Positions 611 through 51,500 of a stretch of DNA of 64,000 nucleotides are shown piece after piece (position 1 is the first letter of the stretch; each line of letters opens with the position of its first letter). Origin of the DNA: Escherichia coli (lineage in GTDB: Bacteria; Pseudomonadota; Gammaproteobacteria; Enterobacterales; Enterobacteriaceae); the NCBI RefSeq assembly GCF_003790525.1, contig NZ_CP033635.1. One strand, written 5' to 3'. The position numbers were made by a program, and so were the translations under genes. The notes beneath the pieces were generated by a model. The model saw only the letters and a program-made list of their open reading frames with translations, did not search any database and was not told the origin of the DNA.

Positions 611-2113
611 TTATTCATCAATTCGCGGATGTTGCTGCACCAGGCGGGTACGTTTCGCCTGCAAATCGGCAATCTCGTGGTCAATATCATCGATTTTCTG
701 CTCGATATTATCGTAATGCTCGACGAGAATTTCCTTCGCTTCCTGTATATCTGACGCCGCCGGTGTCGCACCTTTCAACGGACGATTTGCCGTCTCTTTC
801 ATGGTTACGCCGGTGATTAAACCAACCACCGCCACTACCATCAGGTAATAGGCAGGCATCATCAGATTCTGCGAGCTTTCGACCAGCCAGGCCGCCAGTG
901 TTGGCGTCAGACCGGCAACCAGCACCGAAATATTAAATGCCGCCGCCAGCGCGCTGTAACGGATATGCGTCGGGAACATCGCTGGCAAGGTAGAAGCCAT
1001 AACGCCCGTAAAGCAGTTAAGGATCACCGCCAGCATCAGTAACCCGGCAAAAATCAGGCCGATGACGTTACTGTTAATCAGAATAAACGCCGGGATCGCC
1101 AACACAAACAGTGCAACACTACCAAGTAGCACAAACGGACGACGGCCAAAACGGTCACTCAGCAAGCCCATCACCGGCTGGACAAACAGCATACCGATCA
1201 TAATGGCGATAATAATCAGCACCCCGTGGTCTTCGGAGTAATGCAGGTTATGCGACAAATAACTCGGCATATAGGTCAGCAACATGTAGTAAGTCACGTT
1301 GGTGGCAATTACCAGACCAATACATGTCAACAGGCTGCGCCAGTATTTAGTGGCAATCTCTTTAAACGAGACTTTCGGGCCATCCTGCAAACCTTCGCGG
1401 TCGCCCTGTTCCAGTTTATCAACATGCTGCTGGAACGCCGGAGTCTCTTCCAGCGCATGGCGCAGGTAAAGCCCGATAATCCCTAACGGCAGAGCGATAA
1501 AGAACGGAATACGCCAGCCCCAGTCGAGGAAGTTCTCTTCGCCGACAATGGTCGAAATTAACACCACCACGCCAGCACCCAGCACAAACCCGGCAATAGA
1601 ACCGAAGTCCAGCCAGCTGCCCATAAATCCACGTTTACGGTCAGGGGAGTATTCCGCAACAAATATCGACGCCCCGGTATATTCACCGCCGACCGAGAAA
1701 CCTTGTGCCATCTTACAGATCAACAGCAGAATCGGTGCCCAAATACCAATCGTGTCGTAGGACGGTATTAAGCCAATACAGAACGTACTGATCGACATAA
1801 TCACAATAGTGATAGCGAGGATCTTCTGGCGACCATATTTATCGCCCAACATACCAAAGAAGAGCCCGCCAAGCGGTCGAATCAGAAAGGGAACGGAGAA
1901 AGTGGCAAGTGCAGCAACCATCTGCACGCTGGGGTCAGCCCCCGGGAAAAAAACTTTACCTAATGCGTAAGCAACAAAACCATAAACACCAAAATCGAAC
2001 CATTCCATTGCATTACCCAGTGATGCTGCGGTAATGGCTTTACGCAGTTTACCGTCATCAATAATAGTGACATCACGAAGGGTAATCGGTTTTACTTTTT
2101 TCCTTTTCAGCAT
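611..2113 (-). CDS. proP: Proline/glycine betaine:H+ symporter ProP (MFS osmosensor), 500 aa
   Basis: ORF track 611..2146 trimmed to MLKRKKVKPITL start; 12-TM MFS protein with C-terminal coiled-coil tail. Confidence 0.95.
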   Translation of the reverse strand: MLKRKKVKPITLRDVTIIDDGKLRKAITAASLGNAMEWFDFGVYGFVAYALGKVFFPGADPSVQMVAALATFSVPFLIRPLGGLFFGMLGDKYGRQKILAITIVIMSISTFCIGLIPSYDTIGIWAPILLLICKMAQGFSVGGEYTGASIFVAEYSPDRKRGFMGSWLDFGSIAGFVLGAGVVVLISTIVGEENFLDWGWRIPFFIALPLGIIGLYLRHALEETPAFQQHVDKLEQGDREGLQDGPKVSFKEIATKYWRSLLTCIGLVIATNVTYYMLLTYMPSYLSHNLHYSEDHGVLIIIAIMIGMLFVQPVMGLLSDRFGRRPFVLLGSVALFVLAIPAFILINSNVIGLIFAGLLMLAVILNCFTGVMASTLPAMFPTHIRYSALAAAFNISVLVAGLTPTLAAWLVESSQNLMMPAYYLMVVAVVGLITGVTMKETANRPLKGATPAASDIQEAKEILVEHYDNIEQKIDDIDHEIADLQAKRTRLVQQHPRIDE

Positions 2114-2320
2114 AGCTTTCCTCGCAGAGTTGGCCCATTTCCGCAAACGCCAGAAAAATCAGCGCGACGGCCGCAAAAGGGGAGCGGGAATTGCAGGATG
2201 CAATCTCTGTAACAAGCGTAGCGGGTTTGCTTACACCCTCCGGTTAAGGAATGTACAATCAAACCAGTTGACGCCTGAATTGGGCAGTTAATGACCTTTT
2301 TACCCTACCAGTGTTTAAAT

Positions 2321-2340
2321 TTGTGATCAACTTCACACAT
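2321..2340. promoter_or_regulatory. CRP-like site (TGTGATCAACTTCACA) in proP promoter region
   Basis: Near-perfect TGTGA-N6-TCACA palindrome read by eye about 200 bp upstream of proP start. Confidence 0.45.
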
Positions 2341-2376
2341 GTATTTCGTTTAGGACTCATTGGTGTAACTGATTAT

Positions 2377-3255
2377 TTACACCAAATTTACAGAGAAGAT
2401 TTCCTCGACCATTGCCCCCGCCAGACGCTGCGCTGAACAGAGTCGTGGCATCCCCAGCGCGACAGTTTGCCAGCGTTGGGTCACTGACCAGCAAACGGGT
2501 TGTTTATCTGCCGTGGTCCACTTTCCCAGCCAACTTAAAAAATCAGCATGATCCCCGCCCGTCGAAACGGTCGAAGAGGCAAACCACTGATGGTAATAGT
2601 GACGCGTGGTCGGGGCCGCATTGATACTCTCTGCCAGATGTTGTGTCGCTTTCACGCGCAAATCACCCAGCAACAACGCCACCGCTTGCGGGCTTCCCAG
2701 ACGGCAGGCATCGCCAAATGCCCCCCAGCGCAACTCCTCCAGAACGATAAAACAGCGCCCAGGCAACGACCAGGCGTTATACGCCCCAGCACGCCAGCGG
2801 GTAAAAATTTGCTCGCTCTGTTCACCCGCCTGCACCAGTAGGCCTCGTTGCGTTAACGCCTTTTCCTTCCAGCGACAACGGGCTGAAAACCACTCATACA
2901 AGGCGGCAATTTGCTGGGGGAGCTCAGGGAAAGCAGAGTGCTGGCGGTGATCCATTTTTTGCAGCAGCGCCAGATGTTGCGCGATCTGCGTCAGCGCCAG
3001 ATGACCGGGATCCAGCATCGACGCCAGTTTTTCCACCAATGTCAGACGCAGGCTAAGCGGCGCATTTAACATCCCGCTGTTCGTCCATGCCTGAAGCTGC
3101 ACACGCGCAAGAAGTTCCTGCATCAGTCGTTCACGAAACTGCTGCTGATGGGCTTGTGGATGGCGGGCATCATCGCCCTGCGCCAGATCCACTAAAAAGC
3201 GCGGATGAACCGACTCCAGCACGCGACCGGGGCCGTCCAGTAACGTCTTGGTCAA
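2377..3255 (-). CDS. yjcZ: Uncharacterised protein YjcZ, 292 aa
   Basis: ORF track 2377..3255; overlaps crfC stop by 4 nt (operon partner); length and synteny match E. coli yjcZ. Confidence 0.85.
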   Translation of the reverse strand: MTKTLLDGPGRVLESVHPRFLVDLAQGDDARHPQAHQQQFRERLMQELLARVQLQAWTNSGMLNAPLSLRLTLVEKLASMLDPGHLALTQIAQHLALLQKMDHRQHSAFPELPQQIAALYEWFSARCRWKEKALTQRGLLVQAGEQSEQIFTRWRAGAYNAWSLPGRCFIVLEELRWGAFGDACRLGSPQAVALLLGDLRVKATQHLAESINAAPTTRHYYHQWFASSTVSTGGDHADFLSWLGKWTTADKQPVCWSVTQRWQTVALGMPRLCSAQRLAGAMVEEIFSVNLV

Positions 3256-5480
3256 TATCGTTCTGCCGTGAAAAGTGTTTGAATATCATCGCGTAACAGC
3301 TGAGCGTCGGTGTAAATCCAGCTGTGAGTCATCACAGCCTGCTGCAATTGCTGCTGCATCAGCCTGACCACCGATTCATTTTGTTGACGCAGAGCCAGGC
3401 TTTCGCGTAAACGCGTCTGTAATTCCGTCAAACATGAAGCGAACTCAGCGAAAAAAGTATTCATGCCTGCCGTAACAGATTCATCGACCTGCTCTGCCAG
3501 AACTTTAGCCATTTGTTGGCAATAAAGATCGACTTCTGCGCTTAATGCTCGTTGCAACACACTGTAATCAACCGTCTCTGTCGGGGATTTCTCATTTCCC
3601 CGTCCCCAGTCGGGCTGATTCAACCAGCGCGAAAAAGTCTCACGCACAACGCCTAAACGCGTGCTCTGCTCGTCCATTGCGTCCTGGCGCGAAATGACTT
3701 CACTGAACAGCTGGCGAGTGTTGAAGTGGGGAACTGCGCTGTGAAAAACAGGAAAATGAAACCCAGGACGAAACCCTGACTCGCTCAATTCCATTTTGAC
3801 TTGTTGCTCAATGGGCCGAATAACATCGGTTAACACCCGGCAAAGGGTGGATTCAAGCTCGGCAAAACGCAGCGTAAAGTCGCGACTGATGGTGTTCTGC
3901 GCCGTCTGTAACAGTGTCTCACAGCAGGTACGAATCTCGCTTAATGACCCCGAATCATCCTGAAACAACGCGGCTAACTGGGCATTCACCGCATCTTGCT
4001 GTTGACGCAGAAAGAGGTTGGCGGAGGTCAGGGCCAGCTCGATTTCATGTTTAATCTCGCCGCTCACCTGAGCCTGATTGAGTTGAAATAGCTGCAAACT
4101 TTCTTCGATCTGGTGGATATTTTGCCGCAATTGTTCACAAGCGACGTTTAACCCGTGCGCACGAAAATCCAGGTATTCCCGCGCCTGCTGCGCGTAATTC
4201 AACAGTTTATGCGCGGCAGATCGCAGAGCATACAACGAGGCGTTAGCGTAAGCGGCATGAAGCAACGCCTGAATTGGCTTGGCGAACAGCGAATCTTCCC
4301 ACAACTGATCGGCAGCATGACGAATATGTTCGAGGTTCGCCAGGTCGGCATGACGCCAGCGCCTGCCGAGCGCGGCATGGGCAAAATCTTCCACCCAGCG
4401 TTGTTGCTCTGGCGCGGGTAACTTACCGCTGTTGGCTAACTCATTACGCGCCCGATTCGCCAGGTAGCCCCACATCGACGACACTGGAAATATCTGCTGT
4501 GGCGTAATACAGCCTTTCATCAGCGTCCCGGAAATCAGTGCCCGCACCTGGTCGGCGTCGTCACTGTTACGATCCTGTTGATCGAACTTATTGACCAGCA
4601 CATACAACGGCACCGATTGCCCCACCGCCAAAATCGCCTCACGGACCTCTTCATCGGAGATCGATTTCAGTTGCGTATAATCCAGCACCGCCAGTACCGC
4701 CGAGGCGCGTGCCAGCTGCTGGTTAAGCATTTTTTGCAGATGCGGTTGCCCGGCTTCATTTGGCCCGGGGGTATCCAGTAACGTCAATTGGCCGGGATAA
4801 CTCTCCAGCCCCGCCAGATGGACAAACTCCACTTCAATCACGGGAATATGCTCAATGGCGGCGTAAGCAGAAAAAGGAAAATCGACGTCCAGCGCCTTCG
4901 CCAGTCGCACCAAATCATTCAAACTTTTCAGACAATGAAAAATAGGCTGGGCACCCAGATAATATTTTTCGAAAGCGACGCCATTTTCGATCCGCTGCAT
5001 AAGCGCACGCATATCTTTATCTATTTCCAGCACATCGGTCAGATGCTTAATATCGCAATCACGCAGGCGCTGTTGTAATTTTTGAATTAAACAATCGATT
5101 GGCGCGACATGTGAAAAATGCAGTACCGGTTCTTTTTGCCCGGGCGTATGGCGAATAAGCGTCGGCAGCGCAGTCATTGGGCGATTGCGATTAGGCAGAA
5201 CCTCCGTACCAACAATGGCATTAATGGTGGTTGATTTCCCTGCTTTCATGGTACCGACAATCGCCAGCACCATTTCCAGTCGGGAAATTTTACGCAACTC
5301 ATTATTCAGCATCGCGTGACGTTCGGCGATATTAGGCTGACTCCAGGGTAAAGCCAGTTGTGGCGCATCGTCTCCGGGTACAGAGAGAGGCATTTTTTCC
5401 AGTAACTGCAACTGTTGGCGAGAAAGCTGTAACAGGCGTTCAGCCTCCTGACTTAACTCATACAGGGTCTGTGTGTACAT
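3252..5480 (-). CDS. crfC: Dynamin-like GTPase CrfC (YjdA), 742 aa
   Basis: ORF track 3252..5480; GTPase P-loop GTMKAGKST and DTPG motif; synteny with yjcZ. Confidence 0.9.
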   Translation of the reverse strand: MYTQTLYELSQEAERLLQLSRQQLQLLEKMPLSVPGDDAPQLALPWSQPNIAERHAMLNNELRKISRLEMVLAIVGTMKAGKSTTINAIVGTEVLPNRNRPMTALPTLIRHTPGQKEPVLHFSHVAPIDCLIQKLQQRLRDCDIKHLTDVLEIDKDMRALMQRIENGVAFEKYYLGAQPIFHCLKSLNDLVRLAKALDVDFPFSAYAAIEHIPVIEVEFVHLAGLESYPGQLTLLDTPGPNEAGQPHLQKMLNQQLARASAVLAVLDYTQLKSISDEEVREAILAVGQSVPLYVLVNKFDQQDRNSDDADQVRALISGTLMKGCITPQQIFPVSSMWGYLANRARNELANSGKLPAPEQQRWVEDFAHAALGRRWRHADLANLEHIRHAADQLWEDSLFAKPIQALLHAAYANASLYALRSAAHKLLNYAQQAREYLDFRAHGLNVACEQLRQNIHQIEESLQLFQLNQAQVSGEIKHEIELALTSANLFLRQQQDAVNAQLAALFQDDSGSLSEIRTCCETLLQTAQNTISRDFTLRFAELESTLCRVLTDVIRPIEQQVKMELSESGFRPGFHFPVFHSAVPHFNTRQLFSEVISRQDAMDEQSTRLGVVRETFSRWLNQPDWGRGNEKSPTETVDYSVLQRALSAEVDLYCQQMAKVLAEQVDESVTAGMNTFFAEFASCLTELQTRLRESLALRQQNESVVRLMQQQLQQAVMTHSWIYTDAQLLRDDIQTLFTAERY

Positions 5481-6377: not shown

Positions 6378-6821
6378 ATGCCGTTAAGTCCCTACCTCTC
6401 TTTTGCCGGTAACTGTGCCGACGCAATTGCTTATTATCAACGTACGTTGGGCGCTGAACTGCTCTATAAAATCAGCTTCGGCGAAATGCCAAAATCAGCG
6501 CAGGATAGCGCCGAGAACTGCCCTTCCGGAATGCAATTTCCCGATACCGCCATCGCTCATGCCAACGTGCGCATTGCAGGAAGCGACATCATGATGAGCG
6601 ATGCTATACCGTCAGGAAAAGCCAGCTACTCCGGCTTTACGCTGGTGCTCGATTCGCAACAGGTCGAAGAAGGAAAACGCTGGTTTGACAACCTTGCCGC
6701 TAACGGAAAAATCGAAATGGCCTGGCAGGAAACTTTCTGGGCGCATGGCTTCGGCAAAGTCACCGATAAATTTGGCGTACCGTGGATGATTAATGTCGTC
6801 AAACAACAACCAACGCACTAA
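6378..6821 (+). CDS. yjdN: VOC/glyoxalase-family protein YjdN (PhnB), 147 aa
   Basis: ORF track 6378..6821; directly upstream of phnC. Confidence 0.9.
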   Translation: MPLSPYLSFAGNCADAIAYYQRTLGAELLYKISFGEMPKSAQDSAENCPSGMQFPDTAIAHANVRIAGSDIMMSDAIPSGKASYSGFTLVLDSQQVEEGKRWFDNLAANGKIEMAWQETFWAHGFGKVTDKFGVPWMINVVKQQPTH

Positions 6822-6845
6822 CCCGCCGGGAGGGCCGCCCTCCCG

Positions 6846-6915
6846 CACTGTCATCGAAATCTCGTTAACTCTTCATCCGTTAGTCACTTTTAGTTAACAA
6901 AATCGTCACAATAAT
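6846..6915 (+). promoter_or_regulatory. Pho-box array (PhoB sites) of the phnC promoter
   Basis: Run of 7-bp CTGTCAT-like half-sites at ~11-bp spacing (CTGTCAT, ATCTCGT, TCTTCAT, TAGTCAC, AGTTAAC, TCGTCAC) 40-110 bp upstream of phnC ATG. Confidence 0.5.
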
Positions 6916-6953
6916 CCGCCACGATGGAGCCACTTTTTTAGGGAGGCTGCATC

Positions 6954-7742
6954 ATGCAAACGATTATCCGTGTCGAGAAGCTCGCCAAAACCTTCAATCA
7001 GCATCAGGCGCTGCATGCGGTTGATCTGAACATTCATCACGGTGAAATGGTGGCTCTGCTTGGGCCGTCGGGTTCCGGCAAATCCACCCTTTTACGTCAC
7101 TTAAGCGGTTTGATTACCGGCGATAAATCTGCCGGTAGCCATATCGAGCTGCTGGGCCGCACAGTCCAGCGCGAAGGCCGCCTGGCCCGCGATATCCGCA
7201 AAAGCCGCGCCAACACCGGCTACATCTTCCAACAATTCAACCTGGTGAATCGCCTGAGCGTACTGGAGAACGTGCTGATTGGCGCGCTCGGCAGCACGCC
7301 GTTCTGGCGCACCTGTTTTAGCTGGTTCACCCGCGAGCAGAAACAGCGCGCGTTACAGGCGCTGACCCGCGTTGGCATGGTGCATTTTGCCCATCAGCGC
7401 GTTTCCACCCTCTCCGGCGGCCAGCAGCAGCGTGTGGCGATTGCCCGCGCGCTGATGCAGCAGGCGAAGGTGATTCTGGCCGATGAACCCATCGCCTCGC
7501 TGGACCCGGAATCGGCGCGCATCGTGATGGACACCCTGCGCGACATTAACCAGAACGACGGCATTACCGTGGTCGTCACGCTGCATCAGGTGGATTACGC
7601 CCTGCGCTACTGCGAACGCATCGTCGCCCTGCGCCAGGGGCACGTCTTCTACGACGGCAGCAGCCAACAGTTTGATAACGAACGTTTTGACCATCTCTAC
7701 CGCAGCATTAACCGCGTCGAAGAGAACGCGAAAGCTGCCTGA
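6954..7742 (+). CDS. phnC: Phosphonate ABC transporter ATP-binding protein PhnC
   Basis: ORF track; Walker [13 protein letters not shown] signature LSGGQQQR, Walker B ILADEP. Confidence 0.95.
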
Positions 7743-7766
7743 CATCCCCATCATTGAGGAAAACGA

Positions 7767-8783
7767 ATGAACGCTAAGATAATTGCCTCGCTGGCCTTCA
7801 CCAGCATGTTCAGCCTCAGCACCCTGTTAAGCCCGGCGCACGCCGAAGAGCAGGAAAAGGCGCTGAATTTCGGCATTATTTCAACGGAATCACAGCAAAA
7901 CCTGAAACCGCAATGGACGCCGTTCTTACAGGATATGGAGAAGAAGCTGGGCGTAAAGGTCAACGCCTTCTTTGCCCCGGACTACGCGGGCATTATCCAG
8001 GGGATGCGCTTCAATAAAGTGGATATCGCCTGGTACGGCAACCTGTCGGCGATGGAAGCGGTGGATCGCGCCAACGGTCAGGTCTTCGCCCAGACAGTCG
8101 CGGCGGATGGATCGCCAGGTTACTGGAGCGTGTTGATCGTCAACAAAGACAGCCCGATCAACAACCTGAACGATCTGCTGGCGAAGCGTAAAGATCTCAC
8201 CTTTGGCAATGGCGATCCTAACTCCACCTCTGGCTTCCTCGTCCCCGGTTACTACGTCTTTGCCAAAAACAATATCTCCGCCAGCGACTTCAAGCGCACC
8301 GTCAACGCCGGGCATGAAACCAATGCGCTGGCCGTCGCCAACAAGCAAGTGGATGTGGCGACCAACAATACCGAAAACCTCGACAAGCTGAAAACCTCCG
8401 CACCAGAGAAGCTCAAAGAACTGAAGGTGATCTGGAAATCGCCGCTGATCCCAGGCGATCCGATCGTCTGGCGCAAAAATCTTTCCGAAACTACCAAAGA
8501 CAAGATCTACGACTTCTTTATGAATTACGGCAAGACGCCGGAAGAGAAAGCGGTGCTGGAACGCCTGGGCTGGGCCCCGTTCCGCGCCTCCAGCGACCTG
8601 CAACTGGTGCCGATTCGCCAGCTCGCACTGTTTAAAGAGATGCAGGGCGTGAAAAGCAATAAAGGGCTGAATGAGCAGGACAAGCTGGCGAAAACCACCG
8701 CGATTCAGGCGCAGCTGGATGACCTGGACCGCCTGAACAACGCGTTAAGCGCGATGAGTTCGGTAAGTAAAGCGGTGCAGTAA
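7767..8783 (+). CDS. phnD: Phosphonate ABC transporter periplasmic binding protein PhnD
   Basis: ORF track; N-terminal signal peptide; operon position. Confidence 0.95.
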
Positions 8784-44137: not shown

Positions 44138-46096
44138 ATGAGTCAAATTCACAAACACACCATTCCTGCCAACATCGCAGACCGTTGCCTGATAAACCCT
44201 CAGCAGTACGAGGCGATGTATCAACAATCTATTAACGCACCAGATACCTTCTGGGGCGAACAGGGAAAAATTCTCGACTGGATCAAACCTTACCAGAAGG
44301 TGAAAAACACCTCCTTTGCCCCCGGTAATGTGTCCATTAAATGGTACGAGGACGGCACGCTGAATCTGGCGGCAAACTGCCTTGACCGCCATCTGCAAGA
44401 AAACGGCGATCGTACCGCCATCATCTGGGAAGGCGACGACGCCAGCCAGAGCAAACATATCAGCTATAAAGAGCTGCACCGCGACGTCTGCCGCTTCGCC
44501 AATACCCTGCTCGAGCTGGGCATTAAAAAAGGTGATGTGGTGGCGATTTATATGCCGATGGTGCCGGAAGCCGCGGTCGCGATGCTGGCCTGCGCCCGCA
44601 TTGGCGCGGTGCATTCGGTAATTTTCGGCGGCTTCTCGCCGGAAGCCGTTGCCGGGCGCATTATCGATTCTAACTCACGGTTGGTGATCACTTCCGACGA
44701 AGGCGTGCGCGCCGGGCGTAGTATTCCGCTGAAGAAAAACGTTGATGACGCGCTGAAAAACCCGAACGTCACCAGCGTAGAGCATGTGGTGGTACTGAAG
44801 CGTACTGGCGGAAAAATTGACTGGCAGGAAGGGCGCGACCTGTGGTGGCACGACCTGGTTGAGCAAGCGAGCGATCAGCACCAGGCGGAAGAGATGAACG
44901 CCGAAGATCCGCTGTTTATTCTCTATACCTCCGGTTCTACCGGTAAGCCGAAAGGCGTACTGCACACTACCGGCGGTTATCTGGTGTACGCGGCGCTGAC
45001 CTTTAAATATGTCTTTGATTATCATCCGGGCGATATCTACTGGTGCACCGCCGATGTGGGTTGGGTTACCGGACACAGTTATTTGCTGTACGGCCCGTTG
45101 GCCTGCGGCGCGACCACGCTGATGTTTGAAGGCGTACCGAACTGGCCGACGCCTGCCCGTATGGCGCAGGTGGTGGACAAGCATCAGGTCAATATTCTCT
45201 ATACCGCGCCCACGGCGATTCGCGCGCTGATGGCGGAAGGCGATAAAGCGATTGAAGGCACCGATCGATCGTCGCTGCGCATTCTCGGTTCCGTGGGCGA
45301 GCCAATCAACCCGGAAGCGTGGGAGTGGTACTGGAAGAAGATCGGCAACGAGAAATGCCCAGTGGTCGATACCTGGTGGCAGACCGAAACTGGCGGTTTC
45401 ATGATCACCCCACTGCCTGGCGCTACCGAGCTGAAAGCCGGTTCGGCAACACGTCCGTTCTTCGGCGTACAACCGGCGCTGGTCGATAACGAAGGTCATC
45501 CGCTGGAGGGGGCCGCCGAAGGCAGTCTGGTGATCACCGACTCCTGGCCTGGTCAGGCGCGTACATTGTTTGGCGATCACGAACGCTTTGAACAGACCTA
45601 CTTCTCCACCTTCAAAAATATGTATTTCAGCGGCGACGGCGCGCGTCGTGATGAAGATGGCTATTACTGGATCACCGGGCGCGTGGACGACGTGCTGAAC
45701 GTCTCGGGTCACCGTCTGGGAACAGCGGAGATTGAGTCGGCGCTGGTGGCGCATCCGAAGATTGCCGAAGCCGCTGTCGTCGGTATTCCGCACAATATTA
45801 AAGGTCAGGCGATCTACGCCTACGTCACGCTTAATCACGGGGAGGAACCGTCACCAGAACTGTACGCAGAAGTCCGCAACTGGGTGCGTAAAGAGATTGG
45901 CCCGCTGGCGACGCCAGACGTGCTGCACTGGACCGACTCCCTGCCTAAAACCCGCTCCGGCAAAATTATGCGCCGTATTCTGCGCAAAATTGCGGCGGGC
46001 GATACCAGCAACCTGGGCGATACCTCGACGCTTGCCGATCCTGGCGTAGTCGAGAAGCTGCTTGAAGAGAAGCAGGCTATCGCGATGCCATCGTAA
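44138..46096 (+). CDS. acs: Acetyl-CoA synthetase, 652 aa
   Basis: ORF track; AMP-binding motif [11 protein letters not shown]. Confidence 0.97.
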
Positions 46097-46308: not shown

Positions 46309-48269
<1,961 letters not shown>

Positions 48270-48299
48270 TCTCCACTAGCCTCTGGTCACCTGACCAAC

Positions 48300-48332
48300 G
48301 GTAAAAAGGTGCGATGTACTGCACCTTTTTAC
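48300..48332. terminator. Bidirectional terminator between convergent actP and yjcE
   Basis: AAAAAGGTGCGATGTACTGCACCTTTTT: hairpin flanked by A-run and T-run. Confidence 0.7.
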
Positions 48333-48350
48333 CGATTACACCGCCAAGCG

Positions 48351-50000
48351 TTATTGGTTCTCTTCAATCAGCAACGCTTCAAGCAAATCGAGATCGTGCA
48401 ATAATTTTTGCAGCGTTTCGTTACTGATCTCCCGCGTGGCGCGCAGGTGGTACAGTTCAGCACGTTCAGAACGCAATGCCGCCAGACGGAAGCGACGCTC
48501 CAGGTTCTCTTCCAGGATTGAACTTTCTACATCATTACGTCCATCGGCGCGACGACGCAGGTTACCAATGACGCGAGAACTAACCTCTGTGAGCAGCTGG
48601 TTATCGATATTCTCTTCGGTATCCGCCGCCAGACGCTCCTCCATTTTCTGGATCGCCACAATCGCCACTTCTGCCGTTGCCGCTCGCGCAATACGTTCCT
48701 CTTTCAATTGTTGCGAATGGTCCGCGACTTCAATGTGTTGTAGCAGAATAGGCAACATCACCACGCCGACAAACAGCGAGAAGAGAATGACACCAGCCGC
48801 CAGGAACACCAGCTCATAGCGCGCCGGGAAGACGTTACCATCCGGCAAGAGCAGCGGGATAGAGAGCACACCGGCCAGAGTGATCGCCCCACGCACCCCG
48901 GCGAAAGACGCGATCAGGATTTCTCGTGTAGTCCACGAACCAAACTCCATCGGCTTCTTCTTCAGGAAGCGGTTGCTGAACTTTTTCATCGTCCACAGCC
49001 AGCCGAAACGGACCAGCATCAGCGCCGCATAAATCAGAATGATATCGGTAAACAGCATCCAGATTTCGACGTTAGGGTCGATTTCTGCCGCCATCAGCGA
49101 CGTCTCCAGAATACCCGGCAGCTGCAGACCTAACAGCAGGAATACCATGCCGTTAAAGACAAATTCCAGCATCGCCCAGGTACTGTTTGCGCGCAGGCGC
49201 ATTGCCAGCGGCGCACGGCGCATCACACCGGAGCGGGTGATGGTCATCCCGGCGGCAACCGCAGCGAGGATGCCGGAAACGCCAATATGTTCGGCAATCA
49301 GATAAGAAGCGAATGGCAGCAAGAACAGTAGAACAATCTGCGTCGCGGGTTCATCACCGCCCCAGCGGCTGAGGAATCGCAGCGAGCGACCGTACAGCCA
49401 GCTCACCACAAAACCGGCGAGAATACCGCCAATGGCCACTTTCATAAATTCGACCGTCGCACCACCGACGGTGAAGATCATCGTCCCCATCGCCACTGCC
49501 ACGGCAAACTTCAACGACACCAGACCGGAGGCGTCATTCATCAACGCTTCGCCCTGCAAAATGCCCATGATTTTTTTCGGGATGCGCCCTTCGCCAACAA
49601 TCCCGGAGAGCGCCACAGCATCGGTCGGAGAAAGCACCGCCGCCAGCGCAAAGGCGGGGATCAGCGGAATGCCCGGCACCACCCAGTAAATAAGGAAGCC
49701 AATGCCGACCACGGTGACCACCACCAGCGCCAGCGCGAGGCCGAAAATCTCTCGCCCATGTTCGAGAAATTCACGGGTCGGCGTTTTCCAGCCATCAGCG
49801 AACAGCAACGGCGGGATAAACAAGACTAAAAAGAGTTCAGGATCAAACTCCACATGCAAACCAAACGTCGGCCACGCCAGTAGCGCACCGATGGCGATTT
49901 GCATAAGCGGAAGCGGGATCTGAAAGGGCATGACACGAGTGACCACCCCGGACAGCGAGACCACGAGGGTCATTATCAGTATGGTGAAGAAGATTTCCAT
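48351..50000 (-). CDS. yjcE: Putative Na+/H+ exchanger YjcE (CPA1 family), 549 aa
   Basis: ORF track; multi-TM with C-terminal cytoplasmic domain. Confidence 0.9.
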   Translation of the reverse strand: MEIFFTILIMTLVVSLSGVVTRVMPFQIPLPLMQIAIGALLAWPTFGLHVEFDPELFLVLFIPPLLFADGWKTPTREFLEHGREIFGLALALVVVTVVGIGFLIYWVVPGIPLIPAFALAAVLSPTDAVALSGIVGEGRIPKKIMGILQGEALMNDASGLVSLKFAVAVAMGTMIFTVGGATVEFMKVAIGGILAGFVVSWLYGRSLRFLSRWGGDEPATQIVLLFLLPFASYLIAEHIGVSGILAAVAAGMTITRSGVMRRAPLAMRLRANSTWAMLEFVFNGMVFLLLGLQLPGILETSLMAAEIDPNVEIWMLFTDIILIYAALMLVRFGWLWTMKKFSNRFLKKKPMEFGSWTTREILIASFAGVRGAITLAGVLSIPLLLPDGNVFPARYELVFLAAGVILFSLFVGVVMLPILLQHIEVADHSQQLKEERIARAATAEVAIVAIQKMEERLAADTEENIDNQLLTEVSSRVIGNLRRRADGRNDVESSILEENLERRFRLAALRSERAELYHLRATREISNETLQKLLHDLDLLEALLIEENQ

Positions 50001-50150: not shown

Positions 50151-51500
50151 TTAGATAGCCCAGCCACCCGCATAGAAGGTCACCAGCGCCACGGCAATAA
50201 CGACCGTACCGATGTTCAACTTGCGCCATTCGCCGGAAACCAGACGACCAATCACCAGAGTCGCGAAGCCGATCATGATGCCTGTTACGATGTTACAGGT
50301 CAGCACGATGAATACCGCCGTAACCAGACCCGCCATCGCATCAACAAAATCAGCAAAGTCGATTTTCGCCACGTTGCTCAGCATCAGCAGGCCAACGTAC
50401 ATCAACGCCGGAGCCGTTGCGTACCCCGGAACGAGGTAAGAGAGCGGAGAGAGGAACAGAATCAGCAGGAACAGCACGCCAACGGTGATAGCCGTCAACC
50501 CGGTTTTACCGCCCGCCGCCGTACCCGCCGCAGACTCGATGTATACCGCTGCCGGAGCTGCACCCACCAGGCCAGAGAAAACGCTGCTCATGGAGTCAGT
50601 GGTCAGTGCTTTCCCGCCGTCGATGATCTGCCCGTCTTTATCCAGCAGGTTCGCCTGACCGGCGACGGCGCGGATAGTTCCGGTGGCATCAAATACTGCC
50701 GTCATCACCAGCGCCAGAACGCTTGGCAGGACTACAGGATTCAGCGCGCCCATAATATCCAGGCTGCCAATCAGTGAATTGCCGTTTTCATCGCTCAATG
50801 AAGGCATAGCGAAAACGCCGGAGAAATGGACGTTAGGATCGAAGATCAAACCGACAATTGAGATACCGATAATGGTCAGCAGAATGCCACCAGGGACTTT
50901 CAGTTTTTCCAGGCCGATGATCACCGCCAGACCTACCAGTGACATCATCACCGGAAAGGTCGTGAAATCACCCAGCGCAACGGGCAGACCATCAAGCGGG
51001 TTTTTAATCACCAGACCGACACCATTCGCAGCAATCAGCAGCAGGAACAGACCGATACCGATCCCCGTGCCGTGCGCCACACCGTGCGGCAAGTTGCGCA
51101 AAATCCAGCTACGGATACCCGTGGCAGAAATGACCGTAAACAGCACACCCATCAGGAACACGGCACCCAGCGCGACAGGTACGCTAATATGTTGCCCCAG
51201 CACCAGACTGAATGCGGTAAACGCCGTCAGGGAGATGGCGCAACCAATCGCCAACGGCAGATTAGCCCACAGACCCATCACGATAGAACCGAGTCCGGCA
51301 ACCAGACAGGTCGCAACGAAAACTGCCGCAGGCGGGAAGCCCGCTTTACCCAACATGCCTGGAACGACGATAACCGAGTAGACCATCGCCAGAAACGTTG
51401 TTAACCCGGCAACCACTTCCTGACGGACAGTGCTTCCACGTTGTGAAATTTTAAACCAGGCGTCGAGTGAACCGCCGGTACGCGCTGATGGCGTAGACAT
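50151..51500 (-). CDS. ghxP: Guanine/hypoxanthine permease GhxP (YjcD), 449 aa
   Basis: ORF track; NCS2/AzgA family; PurR-box-like site upstream. Confidence 0.92.

Follow-up and report, generated by a model that had tools for sequence, protein, structure and literature searches.

The genes of the window (the whole 64-kb stretch of Escherichia coli DNA that was analysed) were assigned from its ORF list and from the annotation of the collinear FDAARGOS_497 record, which is identical to the window near the junction considered here and 98.94% identical across the 64 kb. On the plus strand lies the acs-yjcH-actP operon, composed of acs (44138..46096) as the first gene, yjcH (46309..46623; DUF485, a 315-nt gene in the FDAARGOS_497 record) and actP (46620..48269), which encodes a cation/acetate symporter of 549 aa scoring 1144.9 bits on NCBIfam TIGR02711 (cut-off 1099). 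On the minus strand lie yjcE (48351..50000), which encodes a CPA1 Na+/H+ antiporter of 549 aa (847 bits on NCBIfam TIGR00831), and the flanking gene ghxP (yjcD; 50151..51500). actP and yjcE are convergent, with the actP stop at 48269 and the end of yjcE at 48351, and are separated by a spacer of 81 bp (48270..48350), as stated in the initial annotation and borne out by both the ORF list and the sequence. This spacer, which contains neither yjcF nor the lysR-lrgAB module described below, is referred to as the empty allele of the actP/yjcE site. The junction was free of gene fragments, IS elements and repeats, and a tblastn search of the whole 64-kb window gave no YjcF-like sequence (best E-value 1.4); together with the ORF list and the length of the spacer, these results bear out the absence of yjcF between actP and yjcE that had been noticed at the outset. 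Over the 24 kb of the interval 36000-60000, E. coli SMS-3-5 (NC_010498.1) and about 20 other genomes match the window with 100% identity.

The spacer was folded on both strands. The main hairpin (48299..48334), with a stem of 15 bp, a loop of 6 nt and flanking A5 and T5 runs, was kept in the minimum-energy fold of both strands, and lies 29 nt past the actP stop and 16 nt past the yjcE stop; beside it stands a weak hairpin of 5 bp (48284..48297). The 97 nt around the two hairpins folded with a dG of -34.3 kcal/mol (z = -5.19), and none of 200 shuffled sequences folded as well. The GC core of the main hairpin comprises only 5 bp (GGTGC/GCACC), the remaining stem pairs being A-U, and the AAAAA and TTTTT runs that border this core on opposite sides place a T-run after it on either strand. 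Bidirectional intrinsic terminators between convergent bacterial genes are a known general class, and the hairpin resembles this class in being one stem-loop between convergent stops with an A-tract and a T-tract on opposite sides, but differs from it in the 5-bp GC core and in being left uncalled by a pattern scan. It is most likely, as predicted from its sequence, a bidirectional intrinsic terminator for the converging actP and yjcE transcripts. A promoter and terminator pattern scan of 48000-48600 called nothing, with 0 sites for the terminator consensus; the T residues of the T-run pair with the A-run in the extended stem, which is probably why the hairpin was missed. The clean bidirectional hairpin terminator of the initial annotation was therefore upheld as a stable stem on both strands, with its terminator activity standing as a prediction that the scan did not call.

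A REP/BIME-like repeat was ruled out by copy number, since a 97-nt query containing the hairpin matched one place per genome among the complete E. coli genomes and the 36-nt hairpin, with up to 3 mismatches allowed, matched the window once. The Rfam 15 covariance models gave 0 matches at E <= 1 in 47800-48800. A shorter version of the empty spacer, of 63 bp, was observed in E. coli HS-02 (NZ_CP172818.1; positions 5009-5071 of the extracted locus L005), which lacks the main hairpin's left arm together with 6 nt beside yjcE. This shortening would destroy the shared terminator and may reflect either a genuine secondary loss or a misassembly of the palindrome.

The weak hairpin was identified, from its fold and from a comparison of about 70 loci downstream of actP, as the decayed remnant of the conserved actP terminator hairpin. 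It reads TGGTC-ACCT-GACCA in the window, in place of the CCCCGGTC-N4-GACCGGGG found in K-12, Nissle and other genera. The latter hairpin is conserved downstream of actP across the Enterobacteriaceae, and is intact in the yjcF allele, decayed in the window-type empty alleles and missing in E. albertii. The older hairpin may have become redundant beside the main hairpin and then decayed.

For comparison with K-12, the corresponding region of the K-12 derivative W3110-P was used, in which a gene of 1,293 nt (430 aa), annotated as espX5 or yjcF (yjcF is b4066, and espX5 in the RefSeq annotation), lies between actP and yjcE. The yjcF of about 430 aa that the initial annotation placed at this site of K-12 was thus confirmed, and the direct adjacency of actP and yjcE is not the K-12 arrangement. 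acs, yjcH, actP, yjcE, ghxP and soxR are common to K-12 and the window in unchanged order, as is the AAAGGTGC...GCACCTTT hairpin just downstream of yjcE. What K-12 has and the window does not is a unit of 1.52 kb with yjcF and its AT-rich promoter region. The spacer between actP and yjcE is 1,623 bp in W3110-P and 81 bp in the window, a difference of 1,542 bp, and the distance from nrfA to soxR is shorter in the window by 1,530 bp, instead of the approximately 1.37 kb given in the initial annotation. The junction had also been described as scarless, which is correct in that gene fragments, IS elements and repeats are absent from it, but it does not correspond to a clean removal of the segment present in K-12: 12 differences between the window and K-12 were counted in the 31 bp after actP, where the actP hairpin is decayed in the window, unlike in K-12, and in the last 13 bp of yjcE four linked synonymous changes accompany the window-type empty allele in the table of variable sites. 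These four differences (window 48351-48363) fall within the last five codons of yjcE and form an unusually dense cluster of divergence; the same changes were observed in E2348/69, the flanks of which are otherwise Nissle-like.

The contents of the site were then recorded in a survey of 5,426 complete E. coli genomes. The yjcF allele was found in 4,114 genomes (K-12, O157:H7, O55:H7 and O111:H8 among them), an allele of 2,154 bp with genes for LrgB, CidA/LrgA and a LysR regulator in 1,038 genomes (Nissle 1917), and the empty allele, recorded as a contiguous junction, in 263-268 genomes (SMS-3-5, IAI39, APEC O78:H4 and E2348/69). The three counts total about 5,420 of the 5,426, so that the alleles are mutually exclusive and nearly exhaustive, which indicates, at the sensitivity of megablast, that yjcF has no other location in genomes of the empty type; yjcF was found in at most 2 places per genome. 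The search for a relocated yjcF that had been proposed at first accordingly found none, either by these counts or by tblastn of the window. The identical 97-bp junction occurs in about 180 genomes and near-identical versions in about 80 more. The actP/yjcE site is thus a gene presence/absence polymorphism, with constant orthologous flanks and contents that differ among genomes. The polymorphism proposed in the initial annotation is real, being seen in hundreds of independent complete genomes, but it has three states rather than two and is not specific to a strain, as E. albertii and two further lineages of Escherichia also have related versions of the empty junction.

This distribution excluded two explanations of the window junction. 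The first, a recent, strain-specific and scarless deletion of yjcF from a K-12-like allele, would agree with the absence of a yjcF remnant and of an IS element from the junction; it was considered very improbable on the ground that the junction is present unchanged in about 180 genomes and nearly so in about 80 more (including SMS-3-5, IAI39, APEC O78:H4 and E2348/69), that homologous empty spacers are present in other Escherichia species and that many positions of the spacer do not agree with either flank of K-12. The second, an assembly or collapse artefact at the palindrome, has nothing in its favour beyond the presence of the palindrome itself, and its probability was taken as negligible with 263-268 independently assembled complete genomes sharing the junction and the allele counts adding up to nearly all genomes. 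The empty junction is very probably an old, lineage-level allele of a multi-allelic site rather than a recent deletion. As such, the variation is ordinary gene-content polymorphism and can already be seen in annotated genomes; the papers found on yjcF/EspX5 and on yjcE, actP and phylogroup offered virulence-gene lists and a use of yjcF in H-NS ChIP, and none of them appeared, by title or abstract, to deal with the three-allele site.

For the determination of the ancestral content, one genome per species was selected by YjcE and the neighbouring genes were placed by tblastn, which gave 80 outgroup loci. The order yjcE-lysR-lrgA-lrgB-actP was found in most of these species-level loci (in Citrobacter, Enterobacter, Raoultella/Klebsiella, Cedecea, Mixta, Erwinia and E. 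whittamii), and a YjcF homologue was found by tblastn in 0 of the 80. E. coli Nissle 1917 keeps the same arrangement, as actP-lrgB-lrgA-lysR-yjcE. The Nissle-type lysR-lrgAB module is therefore the ancestral content of the site across the Enterobacterales. The flanks of Nissle 1917 and E. whittamii match those of the window, with near-identical ActP, and YjcE is the same RefSeq protein in Nissle and in the FDAARGOS_497 record. Both retain the 2,154-bp module and two GC-rich terminator hairpins, and lack the A5/T5 hairpin of the window. The core AAAGGTGC-N8-GCACCTTT of that hairpin was found only in the empty and yjcF alleles, with no occurrence in the ancestral allele or in any other genus, and these two derived alleles consequently share an origin.

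No remnant of the 3' end of the ancestral lysR or of its spacer was found in the spacers of K-12, the deep E. coli lineage L087, the window, L009 (Escherichia sp. MOD1-EC7003) or E. albertii by local alignment against Nissle. The best match of a spacer to Nissle was a 9-mer, TAAGTCGGG, in E. albertii, which was reached by 115 of 2,000 shuffles, and collinear anchors to Nissle that had been seen by eye were rejected, all alignments being within the range of the shuffles. In Klebsiella indica (L026) lysR-lrgAB is also missing, with yjcE and actP likewise close together, at about 76 bp, but, unlike in the window, the CCCCGGCC...GGCCGGGG actP hairpin is kept and the AAAGGTGC hairpin is absent; this loss of the module is independent and has a different junction. 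Outgroup loci of many genera (L012, L016, L017, L018, L020, L021, L029, L037 and L045) were observed to carry an extra 0.7-5 kb, either in the yjcE-lysR interval or in the one from lrgB to actP, which marks both edges of the module as insertion hot spots beyond Escherichia.

In Nissle 1917 (positions 6539-8619 of locus L003) the genes for a CidR-like LysR regulator and LrgA/LrgB-like proteins were observed directly beside the acs-yjcH-actP acetate operon. The best NCBIfam match of the regulator is CidR, at 286 bits under the cut-off of 415. The Cid/Lrg systems of Gram-positive bacteria are tied to pyruvate and acetate overflow, and by analogy a functional link between the Nissle-type module and the neighbouring acetate operon is plausible.

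Empty spacers of 82, 82 and 97 bp were found in E. albertii (L006), in the record titled E. coli SCPM-O-B-8794 (L008) and in Escherichia sp. MOD1-EC7003, respectively. All three carry the same hairpin as the window, from which their flanks have diverged by 4-10%. The K-12 spacer is composite in its matches: its left 34 bp match the ancestral allele at 91%, with the CCCCGGTC-N4-GACCGGGG hairpin included, and its right 45-69 bp match the empty spacer of E. albertii (86.7% over 45 bp). The empty allele of E2348/69 has 3 differences in 82 bp from that of the window, and its flanks are Nissle-like until 16 bp before the actP stop and again from 13-51 bp inside yjcE. These Nissle-like flanks, together with the four linked changes in yjcE, point to short recombination tracts, by which, to judge from the sequences, the alleles have been moved or their flanks eroded.

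The yjcF unit differs markedly in composition from its surroundings. The unit of about 1.52 kb (approximately 6529-8048 of the K-12 locus L001) has a GC content of 33-34%, as against 55.8% in actP and yjcE. In a search of 5.8 billion proteins, the homologues of YjcF were either at least 87% identical or at most 25% identical, with none between, and those of at least 87% were all named E. coli where the source gives a name. yjcF is not a recent arrival, as the deep lineage L087, the actP of which is only about 95% identical to that of other E. coli, has a divergent yjcF (94.2% DNA identity) at the same site. No convincing target-site duplication or terminal inverted repeats were found to bound the K-12 unit; an 11-nt AT-rich inverted repeat lies about 40 bp inside each border, which is approximately the level of chance by a rough estimate, and otherwise only a 3-nt AAT microhomology is present at the borders. 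A mobile-element scar, from an IS, a MITE or the excision of a transposon, was rejected for a unit without terminal repeats. No donor of the hairpin or of the yjcF unit was found among the 80 outgroup loci.

The YjcF of K-12 matched the pentapeptide-repeat families PF13599, PF00805 and PF13576 above their cut-offs. The label of an EspX-type T3SS effector was not supported, as even the best of the curated effector models scored far below their cut-offs (PipB2, 42.5 bits against 354; PipB, 36.3 against 274). A bioRxiv preprint (10.1101/559138) treats yjcF as a known H-NS-bound locus, and yjcF (espX5) appears in virulence-gene lists in E. coli genome surveys. Damage to yjcF was observed often. 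ATCC 98082 has an IS1B insertion in the gene, frameshifts are implied for MC4100, NEBExpress, 510016 and 2000-3039 by match lengths of 1,292 or 1,294 nt, and truncated YjcF proteins of 237-359 aa form large clusters. In E. coli USDA-ARS-USMARC-51688 (positions 4248-5202 of locus L086), an IS1A lies directly against the final 49 bp of yjcF and against a truncated pdeC, and this IS1-mediated rearrangement through yjcF parts yjcE from actP.

Two orders of events were weighed for the derived alleles, which differ in the sequence of steps and share the core claim of an old allele. In the order that was preferred, with a probability put at about even or slightly better, the lineage of the window never acquired yjcF. 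The ancestral site held the divergent CidR-like LysR regulator and lrgA-lrgB, as in most Enterobacterales; the 2.15-kb module would then have been lost in Escherichia, leaving a short spacer with the new A5-stem-T5 hairpin; and in a different branch yjcF would have been inserted into such a spacer of the empty type, at a point between the older actP hairpin and the newer one, to give the arrangement of most E. coli, in which the orphan pentapeptide-repeat gene yjcF (espX5), within its low-GC unit of 1.52 kb, stands just upstream of the new hairpin. This order draws support from yjcF being restricted to E. coli and foreign in composition, and from the occurrence of empty alleles in three other Escherichia lineages. 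It is disfavoured by the conserved actP hairpin, which the yjcF allele keeps and which is decayed or missing in every empty allele, by the presence of yjcF at this site in the deep lineage L087, and by the simpler reading of the new hairpin as the terminator of yjcF itself, remaining after a deletion.

The latter reading leads to the second order, which was given a substantial probability, although below even. Here lysR-lrgAB would have been replaced once by a foreign cassette comprising yjcF with a promoter and a terminator hairpin of its own, and the 1.52-kb unit would later have been lost at least twice, once in E. albertii and once in the lineage to which the window, L008 and L009 belong, with the terminator left behind. 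An ancient deletion of this kind gives the hairpin a natural source, and agrees with the ancestral-type actP hairpin being intact in the yjcF allele and decayed in the empty ones. The E. albertii spacer, which is nearer to the right flank of K-12 than to that of the window and has its own left junction, fits an independent deletion, and yjcF is often disrupted elsewhere, by IS1 or by length changes of 1 nt. The AAT triplet that borders the unit on either side in L087 and recurs at the junction of L009 can be counted on the same side, but a microhomology of three bases is within chance. An ancient deletion also demands that yjcF predate the split of E. coli and E. albertii, or else recombination across species; YjcF is found only in sequences that their sources label E. 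coli and in 0 of the 80 outgroup loci, and three events are needed against two for the insertion into an empty-type spacer.

A more far-reaching interpretation, regarded as speculative and improbable, is that the site is a long-lived, trans-species polymorphism of three alleles, which would be maintained by selection through acetate or pyruvate handling rather than by drift and would move by very short recombination tracts. Its contents would then be a CidR-LrgAB-like module beside the acs-yjcH-actP acetate operon in E. whittamii and in genomes of the kind of Nissle 1917, and an H-NS-bound orphan pentapeptide gene in most E. coli, whereas SMS-3-5, IAI39, E. albertii and some E2348/69-like strains would have lost the content completely.

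The actP/yjcE variant matters little overall, and what is added here is modest, namely a third, ancestral allele, a derived hairpin shared by the other two alleles, and the recognition that K-12 is not ancestral. Virulence-gene presence/absence tables are easier to interpret once yjcF is seen as one of three alternatives at a single site. The site is also a small, clean example of one terminator, its activity being predicted, coming to serve two convergent genes as an older terminator degenerates. At actP/yjcE the ancestral reference is not K-12, and it is the Nissle-type genomes that keep the original lysR-lrgAB beside the acetate-uptake operon.
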